DNA of 64,000 nucleotides from Bacteroidales bacterium (GCA_045112395.1 JBGUHW010000021.1:4482-68481), one strand, 5' to 3'. Counted from the first letter of the stretch, positions 2,179 to 63,150 are shown. The notes: generated by a model from the letters alone, not told the origin. A program made the numbers and translations.

Positions 2179-3273
2179 CTATCTTGTAAGTTCGTACAGA
2201 ACGTCCAATTTTGGAGTGAGGATAATTTCTGTCCTGCGGTTCTTAGCGCGGGCTTCAGCAGTCTTTGCATCGTCAACTGGCAGGTAGCAGCTTCTTCCCG
2301 ATGCGATTAGTCTTACAGGATCAATCTTCGAGTTAGAAAGGATTATCTTTACTATCGAAGTTGCTCTCTTTGTACTCAAGTCCCAGTTGTCCTGAATGTT
2401 TCCATTTCCGCTGTATGCAAGATCGTCGGTGTGACCTTCAATTGTAATGTTGACATCCTGATTGTTTTCAAGTACGGCTGCCAATTTTTTCAAAGCGTCC
2501 TGTCCCTTGGGGTCAACATCCCACTTGCCCGATTTGAAGAGCAGTTTTTCGTCTAGAGACACATAAACTTTTCCTTCCTTCTGTGTTACAGTCAAGCCCT
2601 TGCCTTCGAATCCAGACAATGCTTCCGAAACCTTGCTCTTCAATGCGTTCATTGCCGAATCCTTTGCGTTCAGAATTGCCTGAAGTTCAGCAACCTTTGC
2701 ATTCTTTGAATCTAGTTCGCTGTTTTTGCTACTCAATTCACTGCGTTGCGATTCAAGCAAAGCATTCTTTTCGTTAAGTTCCCTTTCCTTCTGCTCGTTC
2801 AAAATCTTCATTGCTTCGAGTTTTGCTTTTTCCTGCATCAGACTCGACTCAAGATTTCTGAGTTCATCTTCTTTTGCTTGCAGTTCATCGCGCGACTGTT
2901 GTAGCATAGCCATAGCCTTCTGCTGTTCGGCATCGGCTCCAGCACGAAGTTTTTCCTGATTTTCGAGAAGTTGCTTGTAAAGGTCGCTTATCTTGTCGTA
3001 CTGCAATGTAAGAATCCTGTATGAATTACTTTTTATGGCAGTGTCGGCGGCAAGAGCTGCAATTTCGCGGTCTTTCTTGCTAATCGATGCTTTAAGTTCG
3101 TTGTTTTCGGCTGTCAGGCTTTCATTTTGCTTTTTTAATTCGCTTCTTTCACGCTCGCAATTCTCCTTTTCGGCCTTGACATCTTCAAATTGTCGTGACG
3201 GCACACACGAAAAAAGGAGTCCCGATATTGCTGTCAATAGCAATAATGATTTTAGTAATGCGTTGATTTTCAT
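2179..3273 (-). CDS. OmpA-family lipoprotein with a long coiled-coil region
   Basis: Signal peptide plus lipobox (LLFSC) from the internal ATG at 3273. About 200 aa of heptad-like E/K/L/Q sequence. C-terminal OmpA_C motif (IEGHTDD...STKRA...NRRTEI). Confidence 0.8.
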   Translation of the reverse strand: MKINALLKSLLLLTAISGLLFSCVPSRQFEDVKAEKENCERERSELKKQNESLTAENNELKASISKKDREIAALAADTAIKSNSYRILTLQYDKISDLYKQLLENQEKLRAGADAEQQKAMAMLQQSRDELQAKEDELRNLESSLMQEKAKLEAMKILNEQKERELNEKNALLESQRSELSSKNSELDSKNAKVAELQAILNAKDSAMNALKSKVSEALSGFEGKGLTVTQKEGKVYVSLDEKLLFKSGKWDVDPKGQDALKKLAAVLENNQDVNITIEGHTDDLAYSGNGNIQDNWDLSTKRATSIVKIILSNSKIDPVRLIASGRSCYLPVDDAKTAEARAKNRRTEIILTPKLDVLYELTR

Positions 3274-12164: not shown

Positions 12165-12377
12165 ATTCGTACTTATTAATATTAGTGTCAACAAAAATAA
12201 TTCTCTCTGTTTAAATGGCAAAATGTTTTTGTAGACATGTTGCTAATGACGGACGTTGTACGCAATGCTGCCATAGATTTTGAAATTAATTCGGCACAAA
12301 TCATTGTGCCGCTACAAATTGAACATTTTCTCTTAATTCATGTACAATCGTGTCATGGCGCGATTCTACATGAATCA

Positions 12378-20561: not shown

Positions 20562-20589
20562 ATGACAACTATATACAAGACTCTAATCA

Positions 20590-20750
20590 GTCATTCCGCA
20601 AGTTAGAACAATAACGCGATACGGAACGGGGAGCGTAATATTGTTCAACTGTGCGGAATCTCCAACAGATATCGTTTCAACAGGAGATTTCGTACAGACA
20701 GGCTCACAAGCAAAGTTCATTTTGCTGTTCGCTTTGTCTTACGGAATGAC
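20590..20750 (+). repeat. Structured ~160-bp repeat element, copy A (MITE-like or small RNA-like), bounded by 13-bp inverted termini gtcattccgcaag/cttacggaatgac
   Basis: Aligns over its full length, apart from the central loop, to the reverse complement of 51378-51534. Contains three internal hairpins. Confidence 0.8.
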
Positions 20751-20799
20751 GAAGAGGCTTAATACAAAAGTTATGTGTCAACATGTATAGAAGCCTTTT

Positions 20800-22083: not shown

Positions 22084-22370
22084 CCGTAGTTTATCTATAA
22101 AATCGCGTACAAAAATATAATGCCAGAAATAATAAAATTCACACGAAACATAAAGTAATCAACACATTAGTGTTTATTACCATTTATAACCCTCGGATTT
22201 TCAGGCAAAAGCGGTTTTAAGCATAAGATACAGCAAAAATATCATAAAGATAAATTATTGATATTGAATGTATTAGTAATCAATCGTTGCCATATAACGA
22301 TAGTAGCATCTATATTGTAAAGACGCAAAATTTTGCGTCTCAAAAAATGAATATTGTGCAATGTCCCACC

Positions 22371-22426
22371 CATTGAATCTTTAAATTTTTGAATTATTGA
22401 ATTTTCAAATCATCGAATTATCAAAT
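22371..22426. repeat. Degenerate tandem array, 7 units in strict 8-bp register (nnTYRAAT)
   Basis: cattgaat ctttaaat ttttgaat tattgaat tttcaaat catcgaat tatcaaat. Confidence 0.6.
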
Positions 22427-22459: not shown

Positions 22460-23167
22460 ATGAGATTCAAACGTATATTGTTAAAGCTCAGTGGCGAGTC
22501 GCTTGCCGGAGCATCGAAGCAGGGTATCAGCGAAACCCACCTTATGGAATATGCAAACCAGATTAAAGCAATACACGAAAAAGGTGTTCAGATTGGAATA
22601 GTAATCGGTGGAGGCAACATCTTCCGTGGAATTTCTGGCGAAAGCAAAGGGTTCGACCGTGTAAAGGGCGACCAGATGGGAATGCTTGCAACAATAATCA
22701 ACTCGTTGGCATTGCAGAACGGATTGGAATCGGTTGGAGTTAAGACAAGATTGTTCACTTCAATCGGCATTGAATCTATTGGCGAACGCATTTCGAAGCC
22801 TAAAGTAGTGGAAGCATTGGAAAACTCGTATGTTTGCATACTTGCAGGCGGTACAGGAAATCCATATTTCTCAACCGATAGTGCATCGGCATTGCGTGCA
22901 ATCGAAATTGAAGCCGATGTATTCCTTAAGGGTACGCGCGTGAACGGTGTATATACCGCCGATCCCGAGAAAGACCCGACTGCTACAAAGTTCGACACCA
23001 TAACCTTCGATGAGGTATACAAGCGCGGACTTAAGATTATGGATCTCACAGCTTTTACATTGTGCAAAGAAAACAATATGCCGGTAATTGTGTTCGATAT
23101 GGACACCTACGGAAACCTCGAAAAAGTAATAAATAACGAAAATATAGGAACATACATTACAAAGTAA
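22460..23167 (+). CDS. pyrH: UMP kinase
   Basis: 235 aa. KLSGE, VIGGGNIFRG and AGGTGNPYFSTDSA motifs. Confidence 0.95.
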   Translation: MRFKRILLKLSGESLAGASKQGISETHLMEYANQIKAIHEKGVQIGIVIGGGNIFRGISGESKGFDRVKGDQMGMLATIINSLALQNGLESVGVKTRLFTSIGIESIGERISKPKVVEALENSYVCILAGGTGNPYFSTDSASALRAIEIEADVFLKGTRVNGVYTADPEKDPTATKFDTITFDEVYKRGLKIMDLTAFTLCKENNMPVIVFDMDTYGNLEKVINNENIGTYITK

Positions 23168-34730: not shown

Positions 34731-35336
34731 ATGTCCCTATCCCTATTCACTCGTTTTCCAAATCCGTTTCTAAAAGGAATACGGAGGGTGAAAGGTTTGG
34801 GCAAAGTCGTCTATATCACCTTCGACGACGGGCCAACGCCAGAAGTCACAGAGGAGATTCTTGCAATTCTCGCCCACTATTCCGTTAAGGCTTCTTTTTT
34901 CTGTTGCGGACAGAATGCCGATGCCAATCCCGACCAGCTGAAAAAAATCGCCGACGAGGGACATTCCATCGGGTACCATTCATATTCTCACAAGGATATA
35001 TTGAAAACAAAACCTTCGGAGTGGCTTGCCGATGTTGAGCGGAGGTCAGCAGTGTCGGAGGAGGATTTGTTTCGTCCGCCCTATGGCAGGATATCATTAC
35101 GCCATTATTGTAAGCTGAAATCTAAATACAAGTTTGTATTCTGGGATGTCATGTCGTACGATTATGATGTTACACGTTCCTCCGAATCAATCATGTCGTT
35201 GTTGGAAAAGTCGGTGCGCGAAGGTTCTGTTGTTGTTTTCCACGACAAAGTAAAATGTAAAGACAACACCTTGGCGGTACTGCCGCAGTTTATCGAATTG
35301 ATGAAATCAAAGGGATATTCGTTCGGTGTACTATAG
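34731..35336 (+). CDS. Polysaccharide deacetylase (NodB homology domain)
   Basis: ITFDDGP, HSYSH and the RPPYG motif. Start placed at ATG 34731, because the track TTG 34713 lies inside a repeat tract. Confidence 0.85.
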   Translation: MSLSLFTRFPNPFLKGIRRVKGLGKVVYITFDDGPTPEVTEEILAILAHYSVKASFFCCGQNADANPDQLKKIADEGHSIGYHSYSHKDILKTKPSEWLADVERRSAVSEEDLFRPPYGRISLRHYCKLKSKYKFVFWDVMSYDYDVTRSSESIMSLLEKSVREGSVVVFHDKVKCKDNTLAVLPQFIELMKSKGYSFGVL

Positions 35337-35532
35337 GCTTACAGTCTTATAGGCTTACAGTCTTACAGGCTCACAGTCTTGCAGTCGAACGGTCTCACAG
35401 TCTCACAGGCTTGCCGTCTTGCTGTCTCACGGTCTTGCAGGCGAACAGTCACACAATCTTACAGGCTTGTGGCTTTGCTGTCTGTCGGCCTTCGGTCTTC
35501 AAGCCTTTTAGCCTTCAAGCCTGTTAGCCTAA
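35333..35532. repeat. Degenerate tandem array, 25 units of 8 bp (consensus ACAGKCTT) with a single 1-bp register slip
   Basis: Read unit by unit. Units 1-17 (35333-35468) are in strict register, there is one 7-bp unit near 35469-35475, then 8-bp register again. Spans exactly from the deacetylase stop codon to the stop codon of the convergent Rieske-like gene. Confidence 0.9.
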
Positions 35533-51377: not shown

Positions 51378-51534
51378 GTCATTCCGCAAAGTAGAACGAA
51401 CAGCATAAGGAACATTGCTTGTGAGTTCACTTATACGGAATCTCCTTTTGTGTACTAATGAGAGATTCCGCATAGTCGAACAATACAACGCTCCTCGTAC
51501 CGTATCGCGTGTATGTTCTGACTTGTGGAATGAC
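51378..51534 (-). repeat. Structured ~160-bp repeat element, copy B (inverted relative to copy A)
   Basis: Reverse complement aligns to 20590-20750. Same inverted termini (gtcattccgcaaag / cttgtggaatgac). Confidence 0.8.
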
Positions 51535-51554
51535 TGGGAAAAACAATATTCGCA

Positions 51555-61239: not shown

Positions 61240-61252
61240 AAATTTACACCAA

Positions 61253-61365
61253 AAATTCTCAAATTCTCAAATCATCAAATTATCGAATGATTGAATTGTT
61301 AAATCATTGAATTATTGAATCATCAAATTTTCAAATTTTCAAATATTTCAAATCTTTGAATCATT
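61253..61365. repeat. Degenerate tandem array, 8-bp units (RAATNWTY), 12 in strict register then a +1 slip and 2 more
   Basis: aaattctc aaattctc aaatcatc aaattatc gaatgatt gaattgtt aaatcatt gaattatt gaatcatc aaattttc aaattttc aaatattt | c aaatcttt gaatcatt. Confidence 0.85.
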
Positions 61366-61427
61366 CTTTCCTCATATCGAAATTCAACAGCTACAACCAT
61401 GCTGAAGCTGAGCGTAGAGCAAGCATC

Positions 61428-61973
61428 ATGTTGTCCGATTTTCAGCGGATGTATTTTGCACAGTATTATGCAAATCCGTTTCCGTTGCGCAAGTCGGCTG
61501 TGCTGATATTGCTGTTTGTCCGTGATGGCAGGCTGAAGACGATAATGATTGAGCGCACCGATGTAGGCGTGCATGCGGGACAGGTTTCGTTTCCGGGAGG
61601 CAAGGCTGAACCTGGCGATGTCGACAGCATCGACACGGCATTGCGAGAGACGGTGGAAGAAATTGGCATTGAGGTAGGTCGTGACGATGTTGTTGGCGAA
61701 TTGCCGCCAGTGAAGGTGCCTGTTAGCAAGTTCGAGATTTTCCCGTTGGTGGCATTTGTCGAGGAGGTTGGTGACATTGTTCTTTCCGAAAACGAGGTAA
61801 AGCGGGTGCTTGAGGTCGATTTGGCGGATTTGAAAGCATCGTTTTCCACCCGTCCGGTTACCGTAGCTGGTAAGCAGTACGAAGTGCCGAGTTATGTTTG
61901 TGGCAGTTCGGTGGTATGGGGCGCCTCGGCGATGATTCTAGCCGAGCTATTTGCGGTGGTAGGAGAACTCTAG
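61428..61973 (+). CDS. NUDIX hydrolase, CoA-pyrophosphatase-like
   Basis: Nudix box GGKAEPGDVDSIDTALRETVEEIGI. Start placed at ATG 61428, because the track TTG 61356 lies inside the repeat array. Confidence 0.8.
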   Translation: MLSDFQRMYFAQYYANPFPLRKSAVLILLFVRDGRLKTIMIERTDVGVHAGQVSFPGGKAEPGDVDSIDTALRETVEEIGIEVGRDDVVGELPPVKVPVSKFEIFPLVAFVEEVGDIVLSENEVKRVLEVDLADLKASFSTRPVTVAGKQYEVPSYVCGSSVVWGASAMILAELFAVVGEL

Positions 61974-61980
61974 CCATCAC

Positions 61981-62255
61981 TTCGATTCATTGAATCCTCA
62001 AATCCTTGAACATTGAACCCTTAACCTTAACCCTTAAACCTTGAACTTTAAACCAGAAACATAGAAACGTGAAACATAGAAACGTGAAACCTTGAACCTT
62101 AAACAAAGAAACCCAGAACCGGGCGTCAGCCCATTAAACGCCGCAGGCACAGAAACGGCGTAGCCTTTGAACATTGAACCCAGAAACCTGAAACGGCGCT
62201 AGCCCTTGAAACCCAGAAACGGGCGTCAGCCCATTAAACGGCGTAGCCATTAACA
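61981..62255. repeat. Composite degenerate array: 7-8-bp units (TTGAACC/TTAAACC/AGAAACG) followed by six AAAC-plus-GC-mini-palindrome modules
   Basis: Contains an exact 15-bp tandem duplication (62061-62075 and 62076-62090). A 33-bp repeat with 1 mismatch lies exactly 100 bp apart (62108-62140 and 62208-62240). Confidence 0.75.
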
Positions 62256-62318
62256 CCGCTTGTTAAAAAATAGGCATTACAAATCATGCTATACAACATT
62301 TTGTGTCTAACTTTTACA

Positions 62319-62326
62319 TATTTTTG
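62319..62326 (+). promoter_or_regulatory. -7 box-like TAttTTTG upstream of the NifU-like gene
   Basis: TAnnTTTG 69 nt before ATG 62395, but immediately followed by a hairpin plus T-run. Confidence 0.25.
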
Positions 62327-62327
62327 C

Positions 62328-62352
62328 AATAGTCGGAAGACTATTATTTTTT
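62328..62352 (+). terminator. Perfect 7-bp hairpin (aatagtc-GGAA-gactatt) followed by ATTTTTT
   Basis: Read directly. Could terminate a transcript coming through the 61981-62255 array, or act as a leader element. Confidence 0.5.
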
Positions 62353-62394
62353 ACGATGTAACTCAAACTGCTAACATTTAAAATATTACGATTT

Positions 62395-63124: not shown

Positions 63125-63150
63125 TAGCATCGTGCCATGGCGCGATGCTA
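63125..63150 (+). other. Intercistronic hairpin between the NifU-like and GGGtGRT genes
   Basis: tagcatcg/cgatgcta 8-bp stem with a 10-nt loop. Flanked by outer inverted words ataattggt / accaattat and short 7-8-bp repeats. Confidence 0.5.

Follow-up and report, generated by a model that had tools for sequence, protein, structure and literature searches.

Most of what is known about interspersed repeats in bacteria comes from Proteobacteria and a small number of Firmicutes; for the Bacteroidales, a dominant order of gut and rumen, descriptions are scarce. The closest described systems are the repetitive extragenic palindromic (REP) sequences and the bacterial interspersed mosaic elements (BIMEs) of Enterobacteria and Pseudomonas, which are tied to REP-associated tyrosine (RAYT) transposases. 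REPs are by definition imperfect palindromes, 20-40 nt long, whose stems comprise 5-13 bp (PMC3733652, Table 1). Here, a repeat array at positions 61981-62255 of a 64,000-nt stretch of DNA from a Bacteroidales bacterium (GCA_045112395.1, JBGUHW010000021.1:4482-68481; this whole stretch is referred to as the window) was analyzed. The array lies behind a gene for a Nudix hydrolase and consists of short GAAC/AAAC-type linker units, some of which are followed by a GC-rich mini-palindrome (together termed a module). On balance, the tract is probably one allele of a lineage-restricted, non-coding mosaic repeat family that is REP/BIME-like and evolves as a slippage-driven minisatellite. The family is unusual and real, without evidence of a new function, and would extend the REP/BIME concept to much smaller units. 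Apparently it has been undescribed so far; module strings gave no match in a full-text literature search, and a search for interspersed repeats of rumen Bacteroidales returned only unrelated microbiome papers.

Like REP and BIME sequences, the family is extragenic, dispersed and lineage-specific, combines palindromes with short conserved linkers in mosaic clusters of strain-variable size, and is placed preferentially behind stop codons or in the gap separating convergent genes. The clade has a RAYT-like gene, and true palindromes of ~30 bp, TGTA(G/C)A...TCTACA, accompany the arrays and in some alleles are even inserted into them. Unlike REPs, the array palindromes measure only 9-12 nt with 3-4 G-C pairs, reaching 6-7 pairs on the reverse strand with wobble only, and their tag is (G/A)AAAC instead of GTAG/CGTC, GTAG/GTAC tags being present on the separate ~30-bp palindromes only. 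Furthermore, the units are arranged head-to-tail and do not alternate as in BIMEs, many of them carry no palindrome at all, and the RAYT-like genes of the clade are not flanked by array modules in the way that RAYT genes are typically flanked by their REPs. The label 'REP-like element cluster', proposed in a first-pass annotation of the window, thus suits the dispersed, extragenic, palindromic and strain-variable character of the tract, but not its 3-4-bp stems, its lack of a GTAG/CGTC tag or its head-to-tail order.

Modular intergenic repeats of the minisatellite/VNTR type are also represented by MIRU in Mycobacterium, BOX with its variable boxB in Streptococcus pneumoniae and STAR in Staphylococcus aureus. 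The arrays resemble these elements in being intergenic, modular and copy-number polymorphic in close strains, and resemble STAR in placing GC-rich short repeats in an AT-richer genome. However, the array unit of 8 nt, or of 17-20 nt with a hairpin, is much shorter than MIRU (40-100 bp) and boxB (~45 bp), and MIRU, BOX and STAR lack the scheme of a fixed pentanucleotide that may or may not be followed by a hairpin. Regularly spaced short palindromic repeats in an intergenic array also recall CRISPR arrays, whose repeats measure 24-48 nt (PMC3733652), whereas here they measure 9-12 nt, the 'spacers' are the 8-nt linker and no cas genes lie nearby. CRISPR-like polar growth was rejected, as both array ends are conserved and the middle varies.

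In the window, the array is built from the following features:

61981-62255, + strand: downstream array, starting ~8-10 nt past the Nudix stop codon
61981..62115, + strand: hairpin-less array part, ~17 units of 6-8 nt (TRF, repeat families, shuffles)
62061-62075 and 62076-62090, + strand: exact 15-bp tandem duplication, ATAGAAACGTGAAAC x2, two linker units copied
62116..62259, + strand: hairpin-bearing part, six modules amid hairpin-less units
62121-62132, + strand: mini-palindrome 1, GGGCGTCAGCCC, preceded by GAACC
62140-62148, + strand: mini-palindrome 2, GCCGCAGGC, preceded by AAAC
62157-62165, + strand: mini-palindrome 3, GGCGTAGCC, preceded by AAAC
62195-62204, + strand: mini-palindrome 4, GGCGCTAGCC, preceded by AAAC
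62221-62232, + strand: mini-palindrome 5, GGGCGTCAGCCC, preceded by AAAC
62240-62248, + strand: mini-palindrome 6, GGCGTAGCC, preceded by AAAC
62108..62149, + strand: two-module block of 42 nt, copy 1, GAAACCCAGAACC-GGGCGTCAGCCC-ATTAAAC-GCCGCAGGC-A (repeat family D4)
62208..62249, + strand: two-module block of 42 nt, copy 2, 100 bp downstream, 90% identical (repeat family D4)

Along the hairpin-less part the units grade from TTGAATC/TCAAATC through TTGAACN/TTAACC/TTAAACC to NAGAAACN. Its composition (A56 C33 G14 T32) is C-rich and G-poor, and its units are the same 8-nt linker that is seen between hairpins in the family census below. At the 3' end of the hairpin-bearing part, ATTAACACCGC is kept in all alleles (ATTAACATCGC in most). 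Much of this anatomy had been described in the first-pass annotation: the run of units just after the Nudix stop (TAG, 61971-61973), beginning ~8-10 nt later, and the exact duplication of ATAGAAACGTGAAAC at 62061 and 62076 were both confirmed, while of the six palindromes said to follow AAAC all are present, with AAAC before five and GAACC before the first. A 33-mer reported to recur 100 bp apart does so at 62108 and 62208, and the repeated segment in fact reaches 42 nt at 90% identity; this pair is an internal segmental duplication, and the 33-mer pair had 0 matches in 100 shuffles of the whole window. To evaluate the tract statistically, 2000 dinucleotide-preserving shuffles of 61981-62255 were generated, and the observed values were never reached. 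The tract holds 6 hairpins (mean of shuffles 0.17), 5 AAC+hairpin modules (0.01) and 25 of the 5-nt units GAAAC/TGAAC/TTAAC (3.3 expected), and GCGN(N)AGC occurs five times on the + strand of the array and not on the - strand (0.08 expected).

The array is not an assembly artefact, because independent assemblies give identical alleles (L001 equals the window over that contig's extent; L008 = L011 = L205; L022 = L201). The L001 contig, an independent assembly of the same strain, ends exactly inside the 15-bp tandem duplication at 62061-62090. Such arrays are likely a frequent cause of contig breaks in rumen metagenome assemblies, which would explain why assemblies break at these loci.

To define the grammar of the family, 347 distinct modules were compared. 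Positions -4 to -1 before the hairpin foot read AAAC (90-100%), usually extended to GAAAC, positions +1 to +8 after the hairpin read ATWGAAAC, and the start-to-start spacing of hairpins peaks at 17, 25, 32-33 and 40-41 nt, corresponding to 9 + 8k. The array is a chain of 8-nt linkers with a hairpin after some of them. The linker has the consensus ATWGAAAC, with the degenerate forms TTGAACC, TTAAACC and TCAAATC, and the optional hairpin is a mini-palindrome of 9-12 nt located 3' of AAAC, of the form GGC-GNA-GCC, GGGC-GNNA-GCCC or GCC-GNA-GGC. From this census it follows that the '7-8-bp GAAC/AAAC units' of the first-pass annotation are the same linkers without a hairpin. The hairpins are under tight constraint. 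When modules were picked by their flanks alone, the stems were GGC/GCC in 125 cases, GCC/GGC in 47 and mixed in 4. The loops (n=120) were led by GAA (30), followed by GTCA (17), TTTA (14), GTA (13), GCA (12) and GTTA (8), with G..A loops making up 83/120.

These hairpins match a motif that has been studied in detail chemically, the DNA mini-hairpin with the consensus GCGNAGC / GCGNNAGC (Hirao and co-workers; review PMC13037366). The extraordinary thermal and nuclease stability of the folded single strand is missed by standard nearest-neighbour parameters. In natural DNA the motif is described as under-represented, with isolated occurrences in phage replication origins and in promoters (PMC13037366). 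Five of the six window hairpins and most hairpins of the family contain GCG-N-AGC or GCG-NN-AGC, that is, two G-C pairs closing a G..A loop, and the loop preference (GAA over GTA and GCA, which are about equal) includes the most stable variant. A minority is off this consensus, namely the TTTA loops (14/120) and the GCC/GGC stems. In contrast to the published sites, the motif occurs here in tandem arrays across a genome, which would make the family a natural case of the GCGNAGC mini-hairpin being used many times in a genome. The match is one of sequence, and the folded form of the hairpins in vivo is putative.

The first-pass annotation envisaged further copies of the modules, and such copies were found at many loci of related genomes and metagenome contigs. 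The Nudix protein and the proteins encoded around it place the window in an uncultured lineage of rumen Bacteroidales. In related metagenome-assembled genomes (MAGs; RUG, RGIG and Red_deer series), which derive from cattle, buffalo, yak and red deer, modules lie at several separate intergenic sites per ~10-kb locus and on either strand, in loci that had been fetched via unrelated proteins. A pattern scan of metagenome contigs yielded ~35 low-GC contigs (0.36-0.47) with clustered modules and arrays of up to >500 bp, all clusters being intergenic once spurious open reading frames (ORFs) are discounted. High-GC contigs in the same scan gave single matches only and viral contigs 11 single matches without clustering, both of which were taken as chance. 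The exact 19-mer GCCCTCAACGAAGTTAAAC is present in 26 loci in many contexts and species. Since identical multi-unit strings recur in unrelated contexts, the family has spread by copying and not by repeated independent origin. A coding reading of the tract was rejected, as the array is crossed only by minus-strand ORFs of 40-46 aa and its 8-nt period is not divisible by 3. Small ORFs over arrays, such as 62034-62174 on the - strand, are spurious, which is a warning for annotators.

To follow the array over short evolutionary distances, the Nudix locus was compared between close strains, as had been suggested in the first-pass annotation; the tract is not absent from close relatives. Flanking genes are 93-98.6% identical with zero gaps, and the 139 nt before the 233-aa gene (62256..62394) are 98.6% identical and gap-free, whereas the array shows 75-83% identity with 79-105 gap columns. 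Among contigs encoding exactly the 524-aa protein of the window, at least 9 alleles of the downstream array were found (213-363 nt from the Nudix stop to the conserved anchor), and alleles of the array upstream of the Nudix gene are equally many (79-252 nt). The arrays would therefore provide very fast-evolving strain markers for uncultured rumen Bacteroidales, with at least 9 alleles beside an identical protein.

Allele differences consist of changes in unit number (tctcaaat x1, x2 or x4; cctttgaac-gttgaac x1 to x5), a duplication of gattgaat-tgttaaat in some alleles and a 75-nt block that distinguishes L203 from L204 and lies between two copies of GCC-ctcaacgaagttaaac; the window allele carries its own 15-nt and 100-nt duplications. 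Point changes either keep a hairpin (GAA to GTA loops; GGCGTTAGCC to GGGCGTTAGCCC) or destroy it (L200), and a single REP-like palindrome of ~30 bp occurs in part of the alleles and is missing from the rest. The ends of the array are conserved across alleles and its middle is variable, which indicates minisatellite behaviour and not addition at one end. A clean gain or loss of a single hairpin was not seen in the allele series.

Under the minisatellite reading, copies have spread to many intergenic sites, where each array grows and shrinks. Its length changes by 8 or 16 nt at a time, or by larger blocks with direct repeats at their borders, through slipped-strand mispairing or unequal recombination. 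The stable G..A mini-hairpins may form on single-stranded DNA and promote slippage events, and hairpins are also lost through point mutation. The arrays occupy the tolerated space between a stop codon and the control region of the next gene. Given this placement, the array of the window is probably within the 3' untranslated region (3'UTR) of the Nudix gene and ends at or before the hairpin at 62328-62352. We infer that the family represents REP/BIME-like DNA that is either selfish or neutral, and effects on the host such as a block to 3' exonucleases or transcription pausing would be secondary at most.

A number of observations weigh against this reading. The conservation of the hairpin, with its G..A loops and covarying middle pair, and of GAAAC exceeds what pure neutral slippage would leave, and hints at a recognising protein or at selection. 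Arrays are also polar: hairpin-less units are more numerous 5' than 3' of the hairpin block in 26 arrays and less so in 11 (p = 0.008), which gives moderate support to a 5'-to-3' gradient of units first and hairpins after. Arrays of one contig tend to lie on one strand (11 contigs concordant, 3 discordant, not all of them independent). Stems that lengthen by wobble on the reverse strand could, as predicted structures, point to a strand-specific RNA role in reverse-oriented 3' arrays. Finally, the window holds one GAAAC-hairpin array in 64 kb. No association of array orientation with GC skew was detected, the test on 5-15-kb pieces being weak.

The position of the arrays bears on an alternative at the RNA level, in which the tract acts in the Nudix 3'UTR: the C-rich, G-poor run as a Rho loading region, the mini-hairpins as pauses, weak terminators or barriers to 3' exonucleases, or the whole array as a sponge that takes up an RNA-binding protein. 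Either end of an array can adjoin a stop codon. Where the hairpin end faces the 3' end of a gene, the stop codon and the first hairpin are 0-13 nt apart; where the unit end does so, as in the window, hairpins begin 50-500 nt away. In L005 the array is situated between a stop codon and a classical terminator, and some arrays at least are therefore presumably transcribed as 3'UTR. The alternative further draws on the start of the window array 8 nt past the stop with no classical terminator before 62328-62352, on the bias of its first 135 nt (33 C vs 14 G) and on the reverse orientation, in which the hairpin is followed by GUUUCUAU and G-U-lengthened stems reach -5.0 vs -2.8 kcal/mol. E. coli REPs are reported as 3'UTR regulators (bioRxiv 10.64898/2026.03.23.713779).

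Orientation and folding argue in the other direction. Modules within one array are nearly all on the same strand (for example 21 forward and 0 reverse, or 0 and 12) and head-to-head junctions are rare (L018, L014). Arrays as a whole take both orientations relative to the upstream gene and are found in divergent intergenic regions too. In the frame of the array, the flanking genes were (+,+) in 16 cases, (-,-) in 9, convergent in 12 and divergent in 11, based on crude gene calls; this freedom from the direction of transcription argues against a strand-specific RNA function. The 387 nt from the stop codon to the hairpin with its T-run folded with z = -1.0 on the + strand and +0.3 on the - strand, no excess over shuffles on either strand. 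Local mini-hairpins are the sole structure predicted, each contributing -1.4 to -4.2 kcal/mol when folded as DNA and -2.8 to -8.2 kcal/mol when folded as RNA, with the stems extending to 6-7 bp by G-T/G-U wobble on the reverse strand. With Rfam 15, the whole window gave 0 matches at the gathering score; in the region searched at E <= 10, three matches to eukaryotic or viral families appeared, all at chance level and outside the array. A scan of the array for sigma-70 promoters and terminators revealed nothing convincing and no intrinsic terminator on the + strand; its stems of 3-4 bp followed by AUWGAAAC without a U-run do not agree with an intrinsic terminator, defined by a stem of >=5 bp plus a U-run, and such hairpins are by textbook standards too weak for intrinsic termination. 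Moreover, the extreme variation in length and content among near-identical strains speaks against a tuned regulatory element. An RNA-level role is thus unlikely, and the first-pass idea of a structured RNA made of tiny hairpins finds no support in the folding scores, the Rfam searches or the occurrence of both orientations relative to genes.

Independence of orientation would instead fit a role of double-stranded DNA, with the array as a platform for a nucleoid-associated or topology protein that reads GAAAC every 8 or 17 bp, in parallel to the binding of integration host factor (IHF) and gyrase to BIMEs. GAAAC is the best-conserved part of the unit (90-100% at four positions), and REP/BIME sequences are reported to bind several proteins (PMC2817692). 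However, there is no candidate protein, a period of 8 bp is off the helical repeat and the length of the array is unconstrained between strains. We regard such a platform as improbable.

Part of the same evidence can be read in terms of an enzyme acting on single-stranded DNA. A conserved pentanucleotide lies directly 5' of the hairpin foot, and a pentanucleotide at this place is the layout of IS200/IS605 and REP/RAYT systems. For REP/RAYT systems, this layout is also given in PMC3733652. Hence the hairpins may be miniature mobile units of an HUH/Y1 (RAYT-like) enzyme, as a rival or a complement to slippage: the enzyme would recognise the GNA mini-hairpin, cut beside the GAAAC tag and insert hairpin plus linker 3' of another GAAAC. 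As the target would be re-made, head-to-tail arrays would result, with a substrate of the form GAAAC-GGCGAAGCC-ATAGAAAC. A hairpin that is present or absent after otherwise identical linkers, the spacing of 9 + 8k, the dispersal of exact strings over many loci and the tendency of arrays of one contig to share a strand would all agree with this, as would a RAYT-like gene in the clade, which was identified in one of the module-bearing contigs:

L130 11527-12069, - strand: RAYT-like Y1 transposase gene, 180 aa, HUH motif (tblastn, Pfam, NCBIfam)

The tblastn queries were IS200 and RAYT sequences; they gave no match in the window and matched L130 only. The L130 product scored 26.9 bits against Pfam Y1_Tnp (cut-off 23) and 57 bits against NCBIfam REP_Tyr_transpos, the REP-associated tyrosine transposase, which is below the equivalog cut-off of 80 and counts against the insertion reading. 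RAYT-like homologues are common in Bacteroidales and Paludibacteraceae MAGs, and one of them (P0004, 94% identical) is encoded in MAG RGIG8173, which also has the L018 arrays. RAYT-like genes sit at conserved chromosomal positions and are not flanked by modules: L193-L198 contained 0 of them, and L208 and L211 had none within 10 kb. They carry instead an in-frame copy of a ~30-bp TGTAGA...CCATGG...TCTACA palindrome (the TGTAGAAACGTGCCATGGCGCGTTTCTACA palindrome), which makes the RAYT-like enzyme a natural candidate for the larger palindromes, and these a more obvious cognate substrate than the mini-hairpins. In addition, a 9-nt element is much smaller than any known substrate, and the allele series contains no clean insertion or excision of a single hairpin, whereas slippage, block duplication or deletion and point change fit all alleles. 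Insertion by a single-strand enzyme is therefore a possible but doubtful account; RNA-level function and protein binding are less likely still.

A more far-reaching version, in which an active RAYT-like or other HUH system recognises the GNA mini-hairpin together with GAAAC, inserts and removes hairpins of 9-12 nt at GAAAC on the lagging-strand template, and thereby builds arrays that are kept for modulating transcript 3' ends or replication, appears speculative and unlikely. If true, no smaller mobile DNA units would be known, and an 'extraordinarily stable' DNA mini-hairpin would for the first time be seen in natural use genome-wide.

In the RAYT-like family (L130; L193/L195 2501-3067; P0001-P0120), one to several 10-aa units CR(D/N)VPWRVST lie between the HUH motif and the C-terminal region and correspond to the translated REP-like palindrome TGTAGAnnCGTGCCATGGCGCGnnTCTACA. 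From species to species, both arms of this palindrome change together (AACG/CGTT, GACG/CGTC, ATCG/CGAT). That a transposase gene may contain its own putative REP would be worth a separate look.

The genes and intergenic sequences around the array were analyzed as well:

61251..61355, + strand: upstream sister array, ~13 AT-rich 8-nt units, TCAAATnn / TTGAATnn (TRF period 8/16; families D1 and D3)
61356..61973, + strand: Nudix hydrolase gene, 205 aa, TTG start (ORF; Pfam PF00293 on the identical product)
62256..62394, + strand: rest of the intergenic region, conserved and free of repeats, bounding the array on its 3' side (strain alignment)

The upstream array, with a period-8 autocorrelation of 0.77, begins just behind the 524-aa gene's terminator and runs up into the Nudix start codon, TTG. 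The first-pass annotation was right in stating that the gene is bracketed by periodic arrays, the TCAAATnn array at 61251-61355 being real, and this bracketing is shared by the closest relatives. It would be expected if the two arrays were the borders of a mobile Nudix cassette, like attC sites or terminal repeats. However, all close strains keep the gene order RlmN - 524-aa gene - Nudix - 233-aa gene - GGGtGRT unchanged (with the array between the Nudix and the 233-aa gene), no integrase or transposase adjoins the locus, arrays of this family flank unrelated genes, and in more distant species the Nudix orthologue is found beside different genes and has arrays on one side, on both or on neither. 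These other Nudix contexts, together with arrays at many loci without a Nudix gene, contradict the suggestion that the tract marks the edge of a cassette, which we consider very improbable.

Alleles of the upstream array differ by whole units of 8 or 16 nt, and some contain an extra block of 100-124 nt with TTGAAC/GAAAC units and a REP-like palindrome. The TTG start of the Nudix gene (61356-61358) is formed by the last unit of this array in the window, L004, L022, L200, L201 and L204, whereas alleles with the extra block (L008, L199, L202, L203, L206) have an ATG start instead; an indel in the array has therefore changed the start codon and the whole 5' leader. The N-terminal extension of the Nudix protein is conserved in orthologues with an ATG start.

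Downstream of the array, the conserved remainder 62256..62394 appears to hold a promoter-like sequence of the Bacteroidetes type, TTTG...TATTTTTG, which we take to be such by comparison with the Bacteroides consensus. A hairpin with a T-run had been noted further on, and AATAGTCGGAAGACTATTATTTTTT is indeed present at 62328-62352. It reads AATAGTC-GGAA-GACTATT followed by ATTTTTT, is conserved between strains and is located just 3' of TTTG...TATTTTTG and 43 nt before the 233-aa gene. This hairpin may end Nudix transcripts, serve as a leader element of the 233-aa/GGGtGRT operon, or both.

Further repeats were observed in the window and in its relatives. A second long period-8 array with ~20 units of CTTACAGN / GGCTTNNA occupies 35327-35530, from the stop codon of the gene at 34731-35336 across the gap to the convergent gene. 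Units of this flavour are found at the 5' head of GAAAC-hairpin arrays in L135, L103, L005, L013, L016 and L023, and thus probably belong to the same mosaic family. At 22372-22426, a TTGAATnn / TCAAATnn array of the flavour seen upstream of the Nudix gene lies directly upstream of the promoter-like TACTTTTG and of a pyrH-like gene starting at 22460. REP-like palindromes of the window are TGTACAATCGTGTCATGGCGCGATTCTACA (12341-12370), AGCATCGTGCCATGGCGCGATGCT (63126-63149) and GACGCAAAATTTTGCGTC (22322-22339), and near-identical ones are located inside or beside arrays in L004, L008, L011, L012, L022 and L203; G-T wobble positions in these palindromes suggest that one strand matters.

An element of ~165 nt resembling a miniature inverted-repeat transposable element (MITE) is present in two copies of opposite orientation (window ~20588-20752 and 51381-51545). 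Inverted repeats GTCATTCCGCAAG...CTTGCGGAATGAC form its termini, and a second inverted pair, GCGGAATCTCC/GGAGATTCCG, lies inside it. Its mean column identity is 68% in an alignment of three rows, two of which are reverse complements of each other. Units of yet another period-8 flavour, AATCGTAA / TTACGATT, were found at L130 11480-11525, L193/L195 3050-3085, L079 7130-7330 and L103 ~3130-3170. These units are positioned directly upstream of promoters, for example before gltX, where they overlap the 3' end of the RAYT-like gene, and in L079 the flavour is repeated along with a unit of ~55 nt.

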